NCBI GenBank assembly: GCA_963770595.1
Contig: CAVYQG010000002.1
Location: 155,866 to 219,865, forward strand
DNA from: an uncultured Actinomycetes bacterium
GTDB lineage: Bacteria > Actinomycetota > Thermoleophilia > Gaiellales > Gaiellaceae
Length of the DNA stretch: 64,000 bases
Direction of reading: 5' to 3'
Part shown: positions 24,171 to 37,920 of the stretch, one piece after another
How positions within the stretch are numbered: position 1 is the first letter of the stretch
Layout: every line of letters starts with the position of its first letter
The notes under the pieces: generated by a model
What the model was told of the DNA's origin: nothing
What the model saw: only the letters and a program-made list of their open reading frames with translations
Database searches by the model: none
Translations under genes and position numbers: made by a program

Positions 24171-24202
24171 ACGGTGCGTCCGGTCACTCAAGAAACGTTC
24201 AA
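24171..24202 (-). promoter_or_regulatory. Type I heptad-repeat promoter (TTGAACG-N4-TTGAGTG-N8-CACCGT)
   Basis: Heptads at 24196-24202 and 24185-24191; hexamer at 24171-24176. Upstream of the S8 protease, in the intergenic region shared with the divergent SARP-cyclase gene. Confidence 0.5.
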
Positions 24203-24263
24203 GCGCGGGGGGGTAGCGACCTCGTGTGCGCCATGACAAGCTACGCCCGTCGACCGGCGAGGA

Positions 24264-27200
24264 GTGGCAATGGGTGCAGAGCGCCGGGCAGGCGATGACG
24301 AGCTCGAGATCAGGCTTCTCGGCCCGCTGGAGGCGCTGAGAGGCGGAAGCGCGGTCGCGCTCGGCGGCCAGAAGCCGCGGGCGCTTCTCGCGGCGCTCGC
24401 GCTGGACACCGGCCGCGTCGTCTCAGTGGACGCTCTGATCGAGGATCTGTGGCCGGGCGAGGCGCCGGAGACGGCCCCGCACGCCGTGCAGGTGTACGTG
24501 TCGCAGCTCCGCAAGGCGCTCGGGCCGGTCATCGCGACGCGCCCGCCCGGCTATGCGCTCGAGCTCGAGCGCGACCGGATCGACGTCCACCGCTTCCAGC
24601 GGCTGGGCGATGACGGCCGCGCCGCACTGAACGCCGGCAGCCCCGAGCTCGCCGAGGGCGCGCTCCGCGACGCTCTCGCGCTCTGGCGCGGCCCCGCGCT
24701 CGCCGACTTCCTGTACGAGCCGTTCGCGCAGAACGAGATCGCGCGGCTCGAGGAGCTCCGCACGGTCGTGCTCGAGGAGCGGATCGACGCCGACCTCGCC
24801 CTCGGCCGCCACGCCGAGCTCGTCTCCGAGCTCGAGGGCCTCGTCGCGCGCGCAGCCGCTGCGGGAGCGGCCGCGCGCGCAGCTCATGCTCGCGCTCTAT
24901 CGCTCCGGCCGGCAGGCAGATGCGCTGGCCGCGTACCGCACGGCGCGCGAGACTCTCGATCGAGGAGCTCGGCATCGACCCCGGCCCGGAGCTCCGCGAG
25001 CTCGAGGCCGCGATCCTGCGCCAGGACGAGTCGCTGCTCCTCCCCGAGACGGCGCCGGTCAAGCCCGCGATGCAGTTCCGCCGGCTCGTCACGATCCTCT
25101 TCGTCGACGTCGTCGAGTCGATGGCACTGGCGGAGGCGCTCGACCCGGAGGCGCTCGGACGCGTGCTCCAGAGCTACTTCGAGACCGTGTCTGCGGCGCT
25201 CACCCGGCATGGCGGGACGGTGGAGAAGTACGCGGGTGACGCCGTGATGGCCGCGTTCGGTATTCCCGTCTCGCACGAGGACGACGCGCTGCGCGCCGCA
25301 CGCGCTGCCCTCGACATCCGGGTCGGGATCGCGGCGCTCAACGAGCAGCTCGTGCAGAAGCACGGAGTCGGGCTCGAGATCAGCGTCGGGATCGAGGCCG
25401 GTGAGGTCGTCGCCACGCCGACCGACGCGCGGCAACGCCTCGTGACAGGCGAGGCCGTGGGGATCGCGGCGAAGCTCGAGCAGGCGGCCGCTGCGGACGA
25501 GATCGTCGTCGGCGCTCTGGCCGGCCGGCTGATCGACCACGTCGCGACGCTCGAGCCGCTCGGAGAGATCGCGATCAAGGGCAAGCGTGATCCGGTGACC
25601 GGCGTACCGGCTGGTCGAGTTGCGCCCCGTCGGGTCGGCCTTCGACGAGCGCCAGGACGCGCGACTCGTCGGCCGCAAACGCGAGCTCGCGACGCTGCGG
25701 AGGACACTCAAGCGCTCGGTCGACGGCGCGGCCGTCAGCGTCGCGGTCGTCGTCGGTCCGCCCGGAGTCGGCAAGTCGCGCCTCGCCGCGGAGCTCACCG
25801 GCCGCGCCAAGGGCGTCACGACGCTGTGGGGCCGCTGCCTCTCCTATGGCGAGGGCATCACGTACTGGCCGCTGCGCGAGGCGCTCGAGCAGGCGGGCGC
25901 GGGGGAAGAGCGTGACGCAGTCCTCGCGGCGCTCGACGCCGAGACGCCCCCGTCCGGCGCCCGAGACCGCGTGGCTCTTCCGCCGCTTCTGCGAGGCGAC
26001 CGCCGGCGAGAAGCCGCTCGTCCTCGTCCTCGACGACGTCCACTGGGCCGAGCCGACCTTTCTCGAACTCGTCGAGCACCTTACGGACAAGGGCGTGGGG
26101 CCGATCGCCGTGGTCTGCCTCGCGCGCGAGGAGCTCCTCGAGGACCGCCCCGCGTTCCTCGAGGGGCGCGTGAACGTCGATCGAATCGTGCTCGACGCGC
26201 TCTCTGCGGAGGACACCGACTCGCTCCTCGACGGCCTCGGCGGGACGGTCCTCGAGTCGGATCAACGCGTCCGCATCGTCGAGACCGCGGAGGGGAATCC
26301 GCTCTTCGTCGAGCAGCTCCTCGCGCTCGCGCTCGAGGGCGGCCTCGCCGAACGTCCGCTTCCTGCGACGATCCAGGCCCTGCTGGCGGCGCGCCTCGAC
26401 CGGCTCGGCCCCGGCGAGCGCGCGGTGCTCGAACGCGGATCGATCGTGCTCAGGAACTTCACCCTGGACGACGTCGCGGCGCTGGTCGAGCCCGAGGCCG
26501 CGCCGACCGTAGGGGCGCACCTCGATGCCCTCGTGGCTCGCGGCTTCCTGCGTCCCCTCGCGGACGATGCCTTCCGCTTCCGCCACGTCCTCGTCCAGGA
26601 GGCGGTCTATCGCGCCGCTCCGAAGCGGCTGCGGGCGGAGCTGCACGAGCGCTTCGCAGGCCGGCTGGACGCCGACGTGCCGGATCTCGCCGACCTCGAC
26701 GAGTTCGTCGGCTACCACCTCGAACGGGCGTATCGGCTGCGGGTCGAGCTGGGCGAGTCCGATCGGCGCGTACAGTCGCTGGCCGAGGACTCGGGCCGAC
26801 GGCTCGGCGCTGCGGGCTTCCGCGCGCTCAAGCGCGGAGACATGTCCGCGACGGTGAACTTGCTCGACCGCGCTGTTGACCTGCTTCCGCGCGGCGACGA
26901 GGCGCGTCACGAGCTCCTGTGCGAGCTCGGGATCGCGCGCGATGCCTCGGGCGACCTTGAACGTGGCACCGACGACTTTCTGGCCGCGATCGACGGCGCT
27001 CGGGCCGCAGGGCAACGGCGGGTCGAGCTTCGGGCTCGCATCGAGGCGGCATATGCGCGGCTCCTCGGCGAGCCAGAAGGAGCGGCACGGGATCTGCTCG
27101 TCCTGGCGAAGGACGCTGTCCCGACGTTCGAGGCACTCGGCGATGAGCGAGGGCTGGCGCGCGCGTGGCTCCTGATCGGTTACGTGCGCGGAGGGATTCA

Positions 27201-28032
27201 CGGAGACCATGCTGCGTGGGAGCAGGCGGAGGAGCGTGCGCTCGGCTACTACCGAAGCACTGGGTTCCCACCCGCGACGTGCATGCAGCAGATCGCTGCA
27301 GCCGTCTACTGGGGTCCGACTCCCGTGGCGCACGGGATCGAGAAGTGCTCGAACTTGCTCGAGGAGCACGCCGCTGGCCAGTTCGGACGCGCGGCGGTCA
27401 TACCGTTCCTCGGCGGGCTCCACGCACAGGCTGGCGACTTCACGGAGGCGCGCCTGCTCATAGACGAGGCAGCCGGGACACTCACCGATCTCGGCGCCGC
27501 TGCGACCGTGATGGTCTTCTGTGGAACCGTGCGAGCGGACGTCGAGCTACTCGCCGGCGAGCTCGAGGCCGCGGAGGCGACGCTGCGCGAGCAATGCGAG
27601 TTCTTCGAACGGATGCGGAATCGTGGCACCTTGGCGGTCAGAGCAGCGAAGCTCGCCGAGGCGCTCTACCGGCAGGGACGGCTCGAGGATGCCGAGCAAT
27701 GGGCAGACGTCGCCCGATCCAACACGTCGAGCGACGATCAGAGCGCTCTGCTGGTCCTCGGCCCCGTGGAAGCGAGGCTTCTTGCACGACGCGGCGAGCT
27801 CTCCGAGGCTCGCGACCTGGCCGAAGAGGCTGTGCGCCTCGCGGACCGCACCGACGGGCTGAATCTGATCGCCTTCGCGCGGCTTGCGCTTGCCGAGGTG
27901 CTCGGCGCAGCCGATCTCGTCGACGAGGCTCAGCGTACGATCGCGGAGGCGATCGATCTGTTCGAACGGAAGGGCAACGTTGTCGCGGCCTCGCAGGCTC
28001 GTGCGCTCCTGGGCGTCGAGGTCACCACATGA
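24264..28032 (+). CDS. Multidomain regulator: SARP wHTH + BTAD + class III adenylate/guanylate cyclase + AAA/STAND ATPase + TPR; four frame breaks (~24850, ~24956, ~25601, ~25958)
   Basis: The ATG at 24270 has a GAGGAG SD. wHTH: IRLLGPLEALRGGSAVALGGQKPRALLAALAL...VYVSQLRKAL. BTAD: ALALWRGPALADF...LMLALYRSGRQADALAAY...LGIDPGPELRELEAAIL. Cyclase: VTILFVDVVES...GGTVEKYAGDAVMAAFG. Walker A VVVGPPGVGKSRL; Walker B LVLVLDDVHWAE. Long helical repeat C-terminus. Confidence 0.8.
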
Positions 28033-28063
28033 CGAGGGAGGCCCAACGAGCGGGCCTCCCTCG
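28033..28063. terminator. Bidirectional terminator hairpin between the regulator and the convergent mini-gene
   Basis: Perfect 12-bp stem CGAGGGAGGCCC/GGGCCTCCCTCG with 7-nt loop. It begins 1 nt after the regulator's TGA and ends 20 nt beyond the mini-gene stop. Confidence 0.7.
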
Positions 28064-28083: not shown

Positions 28084-28194
28084 CTACCCGCCCTGCGGGC
28101 CGCCGTCGGCATATGCGACGAACGGAGCCGCGAGCGCGAGCAGACCGACTGCGAGCACGACGAGCGTGCGGTGCAGTGAAGTGACCTGGCGCAT
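28084..28194 (-). CDS. 36-codon secreted pre-peptide (MRQVTSLHRTLVVLAVGLLALAAPFVAYA|DGGPQGG)
   Basis: Strong SD GAGAGGAGGG 5 nt before the ATG. Canonical n-h-c signal peptide with an AxA site that leaves a 7-residue tail. It has its own heptad promoter and its own terminator. Confidence 0.5.
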   Translation of the reverse strand: MRQVTSLHRTLVVLAVGLLALAAPFVAYADGGPQGG

Positions 28195-28230: not shown

Positions 28231-28284
28231 ACGCTCGAGCCGACCGCTAACCGCCCGACCACAGACGGCTAACGGATCGCTAAT
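28231..28284 (-). promoter_or_regulatory. Type II phased-heptad promoter (ATTAGCG / GTTAGCC / weak / GTTAGCG -N8- GAGCGT)
   Basis: Minus-strand heptads at 28278-84, 28267-73, 28256-62 (weak) and 28245-51, all on an 11-bp phase. Hexamer at 28231-36. Upstream of the mini-gene. Confidence 0.5.
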
Positions 28285-36291: not shown

Positions 36292-37920
36292 GTGTCAGTT
36301 GTGACGTACGAGTTCAGGATCCTCGGTCCCCTCGAGGTCTCGGGTGAGACCGGTCCCGTCGCGCTCGGAGGGCAGCGGCAACGCGCGCTCCTCGCGGCGC
36401 TCCTGATCGAGGCCGGCCGCGTCGTGCCGACTGAGCGCCTCGTCGACCTCCTGTGGGGCGAGGCCGCGCCGAGGACCGCGACGACGTCGCTCCAGAACTC
36501 GATCTCACGGTTGCGGCGCGAGCTCGGCGCAGACCTCCTCGAGACGCGTGCGCCCGGCTACGTACTCCGCGTCGACCCGCAGCAGGTGGACGCGCATCGC
36601 TTCGAACGGCTTCTGCGCGACGCGCGCGGCTCGGAGGCCGCCGCGCGGCGCGAGACGCTGCGCGAGGCTCTCGCGCTCTGGCGAGGCCCCGCCCTCGCCG
36701 AGTTCGCCTTCGAGCCGTTCGCGCAGGCGGAGATCCGCCGGCTCGAGGAGCTCCGGCTCGTCGCGCTCGAGGAGCGGATCGATGCCGACCTCGAGCTGGG
36801 CCGCCACGAGCGACGTCGTGGGCGAGCTCGAGGCACTCGTCGGCGAGCATCCGCTGCGGGAGACCTTCAGACGGCAGCAGATGCTCGCGCTCTACCGATC
36901 GGGCCGCCAGGCGGAGGCGCTCGACGCGTACCAGGACGCTCGCTCCCGCTTCGTCGAGGAGCTCGGCATCGAGCCCGGGCCGGAGCTCAAGCGTCTCCAG
37001 GCGGAGATCCTCGGCAGGAGGCGGGAATCGCCGCGCCCGGCGCGACCTCGCCCGACGACCGACGACGAAGCCGAGATCGTGGCGGCGCTCCTCGCCGGCC
37101 GGGTCGTGCCCGTGCTCGGGCTCGACGGCGTCGGCGACCTCGCCGCGCACCTCGCGTCGGCGTTCTCCGTCCCCGACGACCGGCCGGTCGACCTCGCGCG
37201 CGTCTCGCAGTACGTCGCGACGATGCAGGGCTCGGGGCCGCTGTACGACGAGCTGCACGCGCTCTTCGAGGCCGCCACCGAGCCGAGCGCGCTGCACCGC
37301 TTCCTCGCCCAGCTGCCCGCGCTCCTCCGCGAGCGTGGCGCGCCGCACCAGCTCATCGTGAGCACGAACTACGACCTCGCGCTCGAGCGGGCGTTCGAGG
37401 ACGCGGACGAGGAGCTCGACATCGTCACGTACGTCGCCAGCGGTCCGCATCGCGGTCGCTTCTGGCATCGGCCGCCCGGCGAGCCGCCGCGCCCGATCGA
37501 CGTTCCCAACACGTACGCGACGGAGCTCTCGCTCGAGCAGCGGACGATCCTGCTCAAGCTCCACGGTGCCGTCGACCCGCTCCCCGAGCGCGAGTGGGAG
37601 AGCTTCGTCATCACCGAGGACGACTACATCGACTACCTCGGGCAGCTCCGAGCTGGCGGCAGTCGTCCCCGTGTCGCTGGCCGCCAAGCTGCGGCGCAGC
37701 CACTTCCTCTTCCTCGGCTACGAGATGGCCGACTGGAACCTGCGCCTGATCCTCAACCGCCTCTGGGGGGAGCGGCCGATCGCGCTATCGCTCGTGGGCG
37801 GTGCAGAGCTCGCCGAGCCCGCTCGCGCAGGCGTTCTGGCGCCGATACGACGTGACGCCGCTCGACGTCGAGCCCGAGGCGTACGTCGCGCTGCTCGGAC
37901 GGAGGCTGGAGGCGGCATGA
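36292..37920 (+). CDS. SARP wHTH + BTAD + SIR2-like (SIR2_2 type) domain protein; three frame breaks (~36808, ~37645, ~37790)
   Basis: wHTH: FRILGPLEVSGETGPVALGGQRQRALLAALL. BTAD: ALALWRGPALAEF...QMLALYRSGRQAEALDAY...LGIEPGPELKRLQAEIL. SIR2-like: GRVVPVLG, HQLIVSTNYDLALERAF, ILLKLHGAV, FVITEDDYIDY, HFLFLGYEMADWNLRLIL. Ends ...LGRRLEAA with TGA 37918-37920. Confidence 0.75.

Follow-up and report, generated by a model that had tools for sequence, protein, structure and literature searches.

The window analyzed here is a 64,000-nucleotide stretch of DNA from an uncultured Actinomycetes bacterium of the family Gaiellaceae (contig CAVYQG010000002.1). A region on its plus strand, 24270-28032, probably represents one cytoplasmic transcription activator of the SARP-LAL type, the gene of which is intact in the organism and is interrupted in the assembled sequence by four errors, and the cyclase domain of which would be more a joint than a synthase. 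The regulator family is common in uncultured soil actinobacteria, and the find is real but fairly ordinary.

After the four +1 frame changes were read through, the region gave one protein of about 1252 residues, which could be aligned over its full length with 93 intact relatives and agreed in all its pieces nearly residue for residue with their consensus. The open frames step from 0 to 1, 2, 0, and 1 between 24237 and 28032, and no in-frame stop was detected in any of the frame pieces. The reference for DNA alignment was the gene of the closest intact homologue (L035:10001-13756, coding for the 1251-residue protein P0002), with nucleotide identity of 81.5%. The global alignment to this gene showed exactly four one-base surpluses in the window, all the remaining insertions and deletions being multiples of three, and in tblastn search with P0002 the whole protein was tiled across the frame pieces. 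The frame changes were located by tblastn, DNA alignment, and a codon-position composition hidden Markov model (HMM) at 24846..24852, 24957..24959, 25597..25604, and 25953..25956, all outside homopolymers. These results bear out the proposal in an earlier note, made from the letters of this DNA, that four +1 breaks divide a single protein of about 1250 residues. The intact orthologues of 1246-1253 residues are single chains with the same domain set. The start codon is likely ATG at 24270 rather than GTG at 24264, because GAGGAG is located five bases upstream of ATG and the starts of the relatives align with it.

The domains were identified by Pfam search of the five successive frame pieces, all on the plus strand. 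Piece 1 (24264-24833) carries Trans_reg_C and positions 1-85 of the BTAD profile, piece 2 (24772-24999) the BTAD continuation at profile positions 86-128, piece 3 (24968-25600) Guanylate_cyc, piece 4 (25599-26000) the first half of AAA_16, and piece 5 (25951-28029) the C-terminal part of AAA_16 followed by TPR_MalT and TPR_10. On the joined gene, the OmpR-type winged helix is located at 24369..24554 (PF00486, 41.7 bits against the cut-off of 26.2); BTAD at 24579..25020, spanning frame changes 1 and 2 (PF03704, 79 and 53 bits in two pieces; 168 bits in the intact orthologue of G006, a genome of the same genus); the class III cyclase homology domain at 25085..25591 (PF00211, 65.7 bits, and alignments to the Cya2, CyaB, and CyaC entries of PDB); the AAA_16 P-loop NTPase, the nucleotide-binding oligomerization domain (NOD) of a STAND protein, at 25662..26091, spanning frame change 4 (PF13191 in two pieces); and the STAND helical arm or winged helix followed by a long TPR superhelix, the predicted sensor, at 26092..28029 (TPR_MalT, TPR_10, and the structure model below). 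The order winged helix, BTAD, cyclase, NTPase, and TPR, as described in the earlier note, was thus reproduced by Pfam, and the motifs quoted there could all be read in the sequence: FVDVVES with a metal Asp at 25100-25120, EKYAGDAVM with Lys and the other metal Asp at 25223-25249, Walker A GPPGVGKS at 25755-25778, and Walker B LVLDDVHW at 26023-26046. Both Walker A (GxxGxGK[ST]) and Walker B (hhhhDD) are conserved over 94 family sequences.

By its profile and structure matches, the N-terminal DNA-binding head is of the SARP type, with BTAD directly behind the winged helix. The best PDB matches of the head were the AfsR structures 8hvr, 8k60, and 8jke at E=1e-27, and EmbR was matched at 8e-23. 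The earlier view that the DNA-binding domain is N-terminal and of the SARP type stands, and no LuxR/GerE domain, the C-terminal helix-turn-helix (HTH) of LuxR type, was detected by Pfam either in the pieces of the window or in intact orthologues. The NTPase-TPR part was subjected to fold search because phmmer of the C-terminal 728 residues against PDB gave no useful match, including none to AfsR. A relative, P0007, was modelled with AlphaFold on an alignment of 32 sequences (pLDDT 82, pTM 0.79), and the model is all-helical beyond the NOD. Upon Foldseek search of this model, the top match was 6mfv (PH0952, a STAND-TPR protein; E=7e-14 over 720 columns), and MalT 8bob was also matched with TM 0.57 on the target. 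The NTPase-TPR part is thus predicted to fold as a STAND protein, composed of NOD, arm, and repeat sensor. No NCBIfam model reached its cut-off, and the partial matches were AfsR in the head, a TOMM kinase/cyclase fusion in the cyclase-ATPase part, and MalT in the tail.

A total of 7091 proteins were matched at E<=0.001, among 8000 scored candidates, with the C-terminal open frame as query. Most of the best 120 are 1246-1264 residues long and carry PF00486, PF03704, PF00211, and PF13191. The best matches are named 'DNA-binding SARP family transcriptional activator' or 'class 3 adenylate cyclase' in JGI, and 'BTAD domain-containing putative transcriptional regulator [Gaiellaceae]' in NCBI. Intact relatives of 1246-1253 residues that carry this Pfam set are numerous and come mostly from Gaiellaceae-like metagenome-assembled genomes, and all of the 18 same-genus genomes sampled contain matches. 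The G006 orthologue (L048:12620-16633) is a single frame, 1337 residues long from the farthest ATG, with all the domains. The design is not new, since thousands of proteins in the databases share the architecture. By published architecture the regulator belongs to the SARP-LAL class, with a recognisable cyclase domain in addition, the comparison with PimR, SanG, and PolR being by their descriptions only. The known SARP-LAL regulators are about 1060-1200 residues in size.

Within the cyclase domain, both metal Asp residues and the substrate Lys are present, and the metal Asp residues are invariant in 22 relatives. The substrate-specifying second site is Leu. In the alignment to Cya2, CyaB, and CyaC, the segment GEAVGIAAKLEQ (25448-25483) of the window stands opposite the canonical ..VN.A.R motif and reads G...K at the Asn/Arg site. 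The six-residue signature of this copy is accordingly D, K, D, L, G, K. Among 94 family members, Gly occupies the Asn site in about 89, and Arg is kept in about 55 and replaced by Lys in 32. The transition-state Asn-Arg pair is thus lost, with Gly for Asn throughout the family and Lys for Arg in this copy and in about one-third of the family. In distant SARP-fused relatives, the Pfam cyclase signal is weak (27.5 bits, L050) or absent (L120).

Proteins of the composition Guanylate_cyc-AAA_16-TPR, about 1020-1080 residues long and lacking both the SARP head and LuxR, are widespread in metagenome-assembled genomes of Actinomycetota, Chloroflexota, and Dormibacterota, with the Asn-Arg pair kept, and about a dozen copies exist in this genome. 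In a scan of genome contigs, the matches were mostly such head-less paralogues, at 35-44% identity, and not orthologues of the regulator. About 90 of the 104 paralogue domains carry the signature D, K, D, then L, F, M, or I, then N, R, and Leu at the second site of this copy falls within the set of residues found there in most of the paralogues. The cyclase domain of the regulator is probably a derived form of the active-looking domain of these paralogues, and it more likely serves as a joint that binds nucleotide or dimerises than as an efficient synthase of cyclic nucleoside monophosphates (cNMP). The role as a joint is favoured because the metal and triphosphate ligands are kept while the transition-state Asn is lost. 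The pattern is as expected from the fusion of a SARP head to a protein with cyclase, ATPase, and TPR parts, followed by loss of catalytic constraint on the cyclase.

The origin of the frame breaks was analyzed with the HMM in a seven-state form over the whole genome (G000; 2.7 Mb in four contigs), a candidate being defined as a same-strand change of coding frame where both frames stay open. A total of 789 candidates were identified (617 of +1 and 172 of -1; 78% +1), or about 29 per 100 kb. The same model detected 14 candidates, or 3.5 per 100 kb, in 400 kb of G006, of which the completeness is 95%, and the density is thus 8-fold above that of a clean genome of the same genus. Within the window 26 candidates were found, 21 of them +1 (for instance at 36810, 38210, 50225, and 58335). 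Among 111 intact G006 proteins with an orthologue-like match, 35 are frame-split in this genome, including glutamine synthetase and aspartokinase, and 48 of the 52 breaks detected by this homology test are one surplus base. Over the whole assembly, the share of candidates that are one surplus base is put at roughly 80-90%. The marker-gene completeness of 73% for a four-contig assembly fits the picture of assembly error. The ratio dN/dS against L035 is 0.03-0.29 across all five pieces of the regulator gene, and in other fragmented genomes of the same genus the orthologues are broken at other places. Since the excess of +1 changes is genome-wide, a third of orthologues are broken, and dN/dS is low in every piece, the four breaks are most likely consensus errors of a long-read-style assembly, and the gene would be intact in the organism. 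Programmed +1 frameshifting was also considered and rejected, because one in three unrelated genes carries the same lesion and the four sites have no visible slippery motif in common. Calls of split genes or pseudogenes in this genome need a caveat for +1 errors, and about one-third of genes have to be read through.

The regulator gene lies within a group of genes of fixed order. In L130 and L131, where the C-terminal 728 residues are 58% and 69% identical, respectively, the order is rpsA, coaE, SLT, TetR, MFS, a HemolysinCabind protein, an open reading frame (ORF) of about 580-590 residues (with a Peptidase_S8 match in L131), a small ORF, the regulator, a convergent ORF of 36-37 residues, an M23 peptidase (L131) and polysaccharide deacetylase, SARP-SIR2, and nSTAND1-WD40. 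The loci of L035 and G006 agree in gene order around the regulator, and the GC content is flat at about 72%. The earlier note had placed the regulator in an accessory block. Judged by gene order, however, the block is a conserved chromosomal neighbourhood and not an accessory island, because the same rpsA-coaE-SLT-TetR-MFS flanks are found in relatives that are only 58-69% identical.

The SARP-SIR2 gene of this block carries a second SARP head at 36310-37030, with a +1 break of its own. The two heads are about 57% identical, within the range of 50-61% for other SARP heads of the same genome, and the expectation that they would be closer to each other than to other SARPs was not borne out. In the maximum-likelihood tree, which covered 30 heads, the heads of cyclase type (99/95) and those of SIR2 type (100/100) each formed a clade, and the two clades were not sisters, the backbone being unresolved, and forced sisterhood of the two clades was not rejected by the approximately unbiased test (p=0.42); by these data the two heads are not demonstrably sisters. 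The partner NTPase-WD40 protein of nSTAND1 type gave no BLASTP match to the regulator family, and it resembles a protein of a third design in this genome, at least 1675 residues long, in the C-terminal part of the latter. The two modules had been proposed to be paralogous signalling designs. The common order of head, effector, NTPase, and repeat holds, and 'same design' is a fair description of it, but 'paralogous' is not supported by sequence comparison for the NTPase and sensor parts, which are AAA_16/TPR in one and nSTAND1/WD40 in the other.

The protein of the third design is encoded outside the window (G000:C4:244814-249838, running to the contig end), and its frame of at least 1675 residues includes SARP-BTAD, cyclase, Ser/Thr kinase, nSTAND-like P-loop, transmembrane segment, and WD40, the cyclase having the full canonical set D, K, D, D, N, R. 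At another position outside the window (G000:C3:585093-587339), a SARP-BTAD-cyclase protein of 749 residues has the non-canonical signature D, D, D, F, H, R and a C-terminal domain of about 300 residues. In two other ENA assemblies (L035:16748-19811 and L130:15467-18491), the SARP-SIR2 and nSTAND1-WD40 genes are called as short fragments, and these long-read assemblies may therefore contain frame errors of a similar kind.

Downstream of the regulator and convergent to it, a gene for a pre-peptide of 36 residues is located on the minus strand at 28084..28194, 51 nt past the regulator stop. The gene is conserved in nine of the nine orthologous loci with enough flanking sequence, and the gap between the two genes is 51-74 nt in the five copies measured. 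The pre-peptide consists of a signal peptide, AYA, and then DGGPQGG in the window, the last element, the predicted mature tail, being DGGPxGG across the loci. A perfect hairpin between the two genes, at 28034..28062, is likely a bidirectional terminator. In front of the peptide gene, four heptads on the minus strand at 28231..28284, ATTAGCG, GTTAGCC, GGTCGGG, and GTTAGCG, are arranged at a phase of 11 bp, and four heptads of this phase were found in all six promoters read (the window and five relatives). In the divergent promoter region upstream of the regulator, two hexamers, CTCAAG and TTCAAG, 11 bp apart at 24187..24203, stand out in the alignment of six upstream regions, in which no other block is nearly invariant; in the opposite orientation these hexamers are TTGAGCG-like and read toward a minus-strand ORF of about 130 residues and the S8 protease group. 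A strict scan for at least three heptads of GTTAGCS or TTGAGCG, with at most one mismatch, at the 11-bp phase detected none; the arrays, which were read by eye and by alignment, are more degenerate than such a scan allows. SARP-LAL regulators bind direct repeats of heptamers with 4-bp spacers on one face of DNA (PMC3367932, PMC10972967). The sites at 28231-28284 and 24187-24203 are candidate SARP-type operators, which fit those of PimR, SanG, and PolR (PMC3367932). This arrangement suggests that the two SARP-headed proteins of the block may control secreted hydrolases and the peptide.

The mode of action can be proposed by analogy with AfsR, PolY, PimR, and MalT. At rest, the STAND NTPase of MalT type would be kept in its ADP-bound state by the TPR superhelix, and the binding of a ligand to TPR would lead to ATP binding and self-association. 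Upon self-association, two or more SARP heads would be placed on the direct heptad repeats of 11-bp phase at promoters of the block, where BTAD would recruit RNA polymerase. The candidate target promoters are those of the secreted-peptide gene, the M23 wall peptidases, and the S8 protease group.

Several points weigh against the reading of the region as an intact activator with a non-synthesizing cyclase domain. The genome contains nine SARP heads as candidate binders of the heptad families. In addition, rpoB (about 3.6 kb) is free of breaks, and the regulator gene has four breaks within 1.7 kb against the genome mean of about 0.4 per kb. Because of this density, a true pseudogene, inactivated in this strain by four independent one-base insertions, keeps a small probability. 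The breaks all fall within the first 1.7 kb, and the neighbouring SARP-SIR2/NTPase pair is heavily broken too, yet the same +1 lesion affects about a third of ordinary genes, glutamine synthetase and aspartokinase among them, the pieces are stop-free and fit the family consensus with low dN/dS, and the bias to insertion (48 of 52) is the signature of technical error and not of mutational decay. Inactivation of the gene is therefore considered very unlikely. With respect to the cyclase, a small residue at the Asn site is no proof of inactivity, as the class III cyclase Ma1120 of M. avium is active although it has Ala in this position, and its activity was reduced when Asn was restored (PMC4215837). 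On this precedent the activity of the regulator cyclase is doubtful rather than excluded. The regulator might then be a working signal-gated cyclase as well as a transcription factor, in which the STAND assembly dimerises the cyclase domains and cAMP, cGMP, or another cNMP forms a second output. The invariant metal Asp pair and substrate Lys, the Arg kept in about 55 of 94 relatives, and the domain score above the Pfam cut-off together with matches to Pycsar cyclase models would agree with such an activity, and Rv0386, which has the same cyclase-ATPase core, is reportedly an active cyclase. However, the replacement of Asn by Gly is specific to the SARP-fused clade, the head-less paralogues keeping both Asn and Arg, and looks like a catalytic constraint relaxed after fusion; Arg is changed to Lys in this copy and a third of the family; the Pfam signal fades in the distant SARP-fused relatives; and the characterised SARP-LAL regulators are described as lacking a cyclase signature (PMC3367932). 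A working cyclase is thus unlikely. The earlier note had proposed that the regulator writes a cyclic nucleotide; the metal Asp pair and Lys needed for this are present, while synthesis of a cyclic nucleotide by the regulator is doubtful in view of the changes at the Asn and Arg sites.

Two further proposals concern the surroundings of the regulator. If the regulator were one half of a paired conflict or immune system with SARP-SIR2/NTPase-WD40, the two would be paralogous as sensors, differ in their effectors, and belong to a mobile accessory block. In each of the long orthologous loci seen (G006, L035, L130, and L131), the modules are indeed linked, both follow the order of head, effector, NTPase, and repeat, and defence systems often contain domains of the STAND, SIR2, and cyclase kinds. 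PADLOC, however, gave no system-level match, the matches being to the cyclase domain of PycC (21-69 bits, residues 264-425) and hence not beyond generic cyclase homology; the core-gene flanks are fixed and the GC content is flat; and the heads are not sisters in the tree, with unrelated NTPase and sensor parts. Both proteins carry a transcription-activator head and lie among genes with candidate SARP-type operators, which points to gene regulation and not immunity, and an immune pair is regarded as extremely unlikely. The other proposal would extend the reading as an activator: the regulator and the convergent 36-residue gene might form an undescribed peptide-signalling pair, in which the secreted DGGPxGG peptide is sensed by TPR, directly or after re-import, and the SARP head activates the peptide promoter and the genes for wall hydrolases and proteases through the phased heptads. 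This extension is a long shot. If true, it would represent a quorum-sensing-like circuit in Thermoleophilia, with a SARP-STAND receptor instead of an RRNPP protein. The strictly conserved cassette of the regulator, the peptide gene with its SARP-type operator, the wall hydrolases, and the second SARP-headed module offers a concrete regulon that can be tested, as well as a candidate ligand, for a class of STAND transcription factors without known signals.

As an activator with a derived cyclase domain, the regulator can be compared with several known systems. The SARP-LAL class, including PimR, SanG, and PolR, has been described since 2004 (PMC3367932, PMC10972967). As in PimR, PteR/FilR, ScnRI, SanG, and PolR, the regulator carries the winged helix and BTAD at its N-terminus and no LuxR HTH (PMC3367932, PMC10972967), and it shares with the subclass the AAA_16 P-loop and TPR_MalT behind the SARP head, GerE being absent. 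It differs from the described members, which are said to have no cyclase signature, in having a clear Guanylate_cyc domain with the metal Asp pair and Lys. The setting is also different, since the described members belong to antibiotic clusters, whereas in Gaiellaceae-like bacteria this family lies in a conserved block together with a small peptide gene and genes for secreted hydrolases. The family would connect the experimentally known antibiotic regulators of SARP-LAL type with the cyclase-ATPase-TPR proteins, from which they probably descend, as an intermediate stage in which the cyclase domain is still recognisable and one transition-state residue has been lost.

In the mycobacterial Mclx proteins (Rv0386, Rv1358, and Rv2488c), as in the regulator, a class III cyclase homology domain precedes an AAA/STAND ATPase and helical repeats (PMC4452763). 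The head-less paralogues, which are numerous in this genome and its relatives, consist of just this body. The Mclx proteins, however, carry LuxR HTH at the C-terminus, in place of which the regulator has the N-terminal SARP head and no LuxR/GerE, and the transition-state Asn is lost in the regulator family. The large SARPs AfsR, PolY, and RslR3 share a homologous head and the logic of SARP, STAND NTPase, and TPR, but the NTPase of the regulator is, by Pfam, of AAA_16/MalT type and not NB-ARC, no sequence match to the NOD-TPR part of AfsR was detected, and BTAD is separated from the NTPase by an inserted cyclase homology domain. MalT and PH0952, STAND ATPases with TPR or SUPR sensors, are similar in the predicted fold of NTPase, arm, and TPR, to which weak matches of the NCBIfam MalT and Pfam TPR_MalT models also point, but differ in the location of the effector, which is a C-terminal LuxR domain in MalT and the N-terminal SARP head and cyclase homology domain in the regulator.

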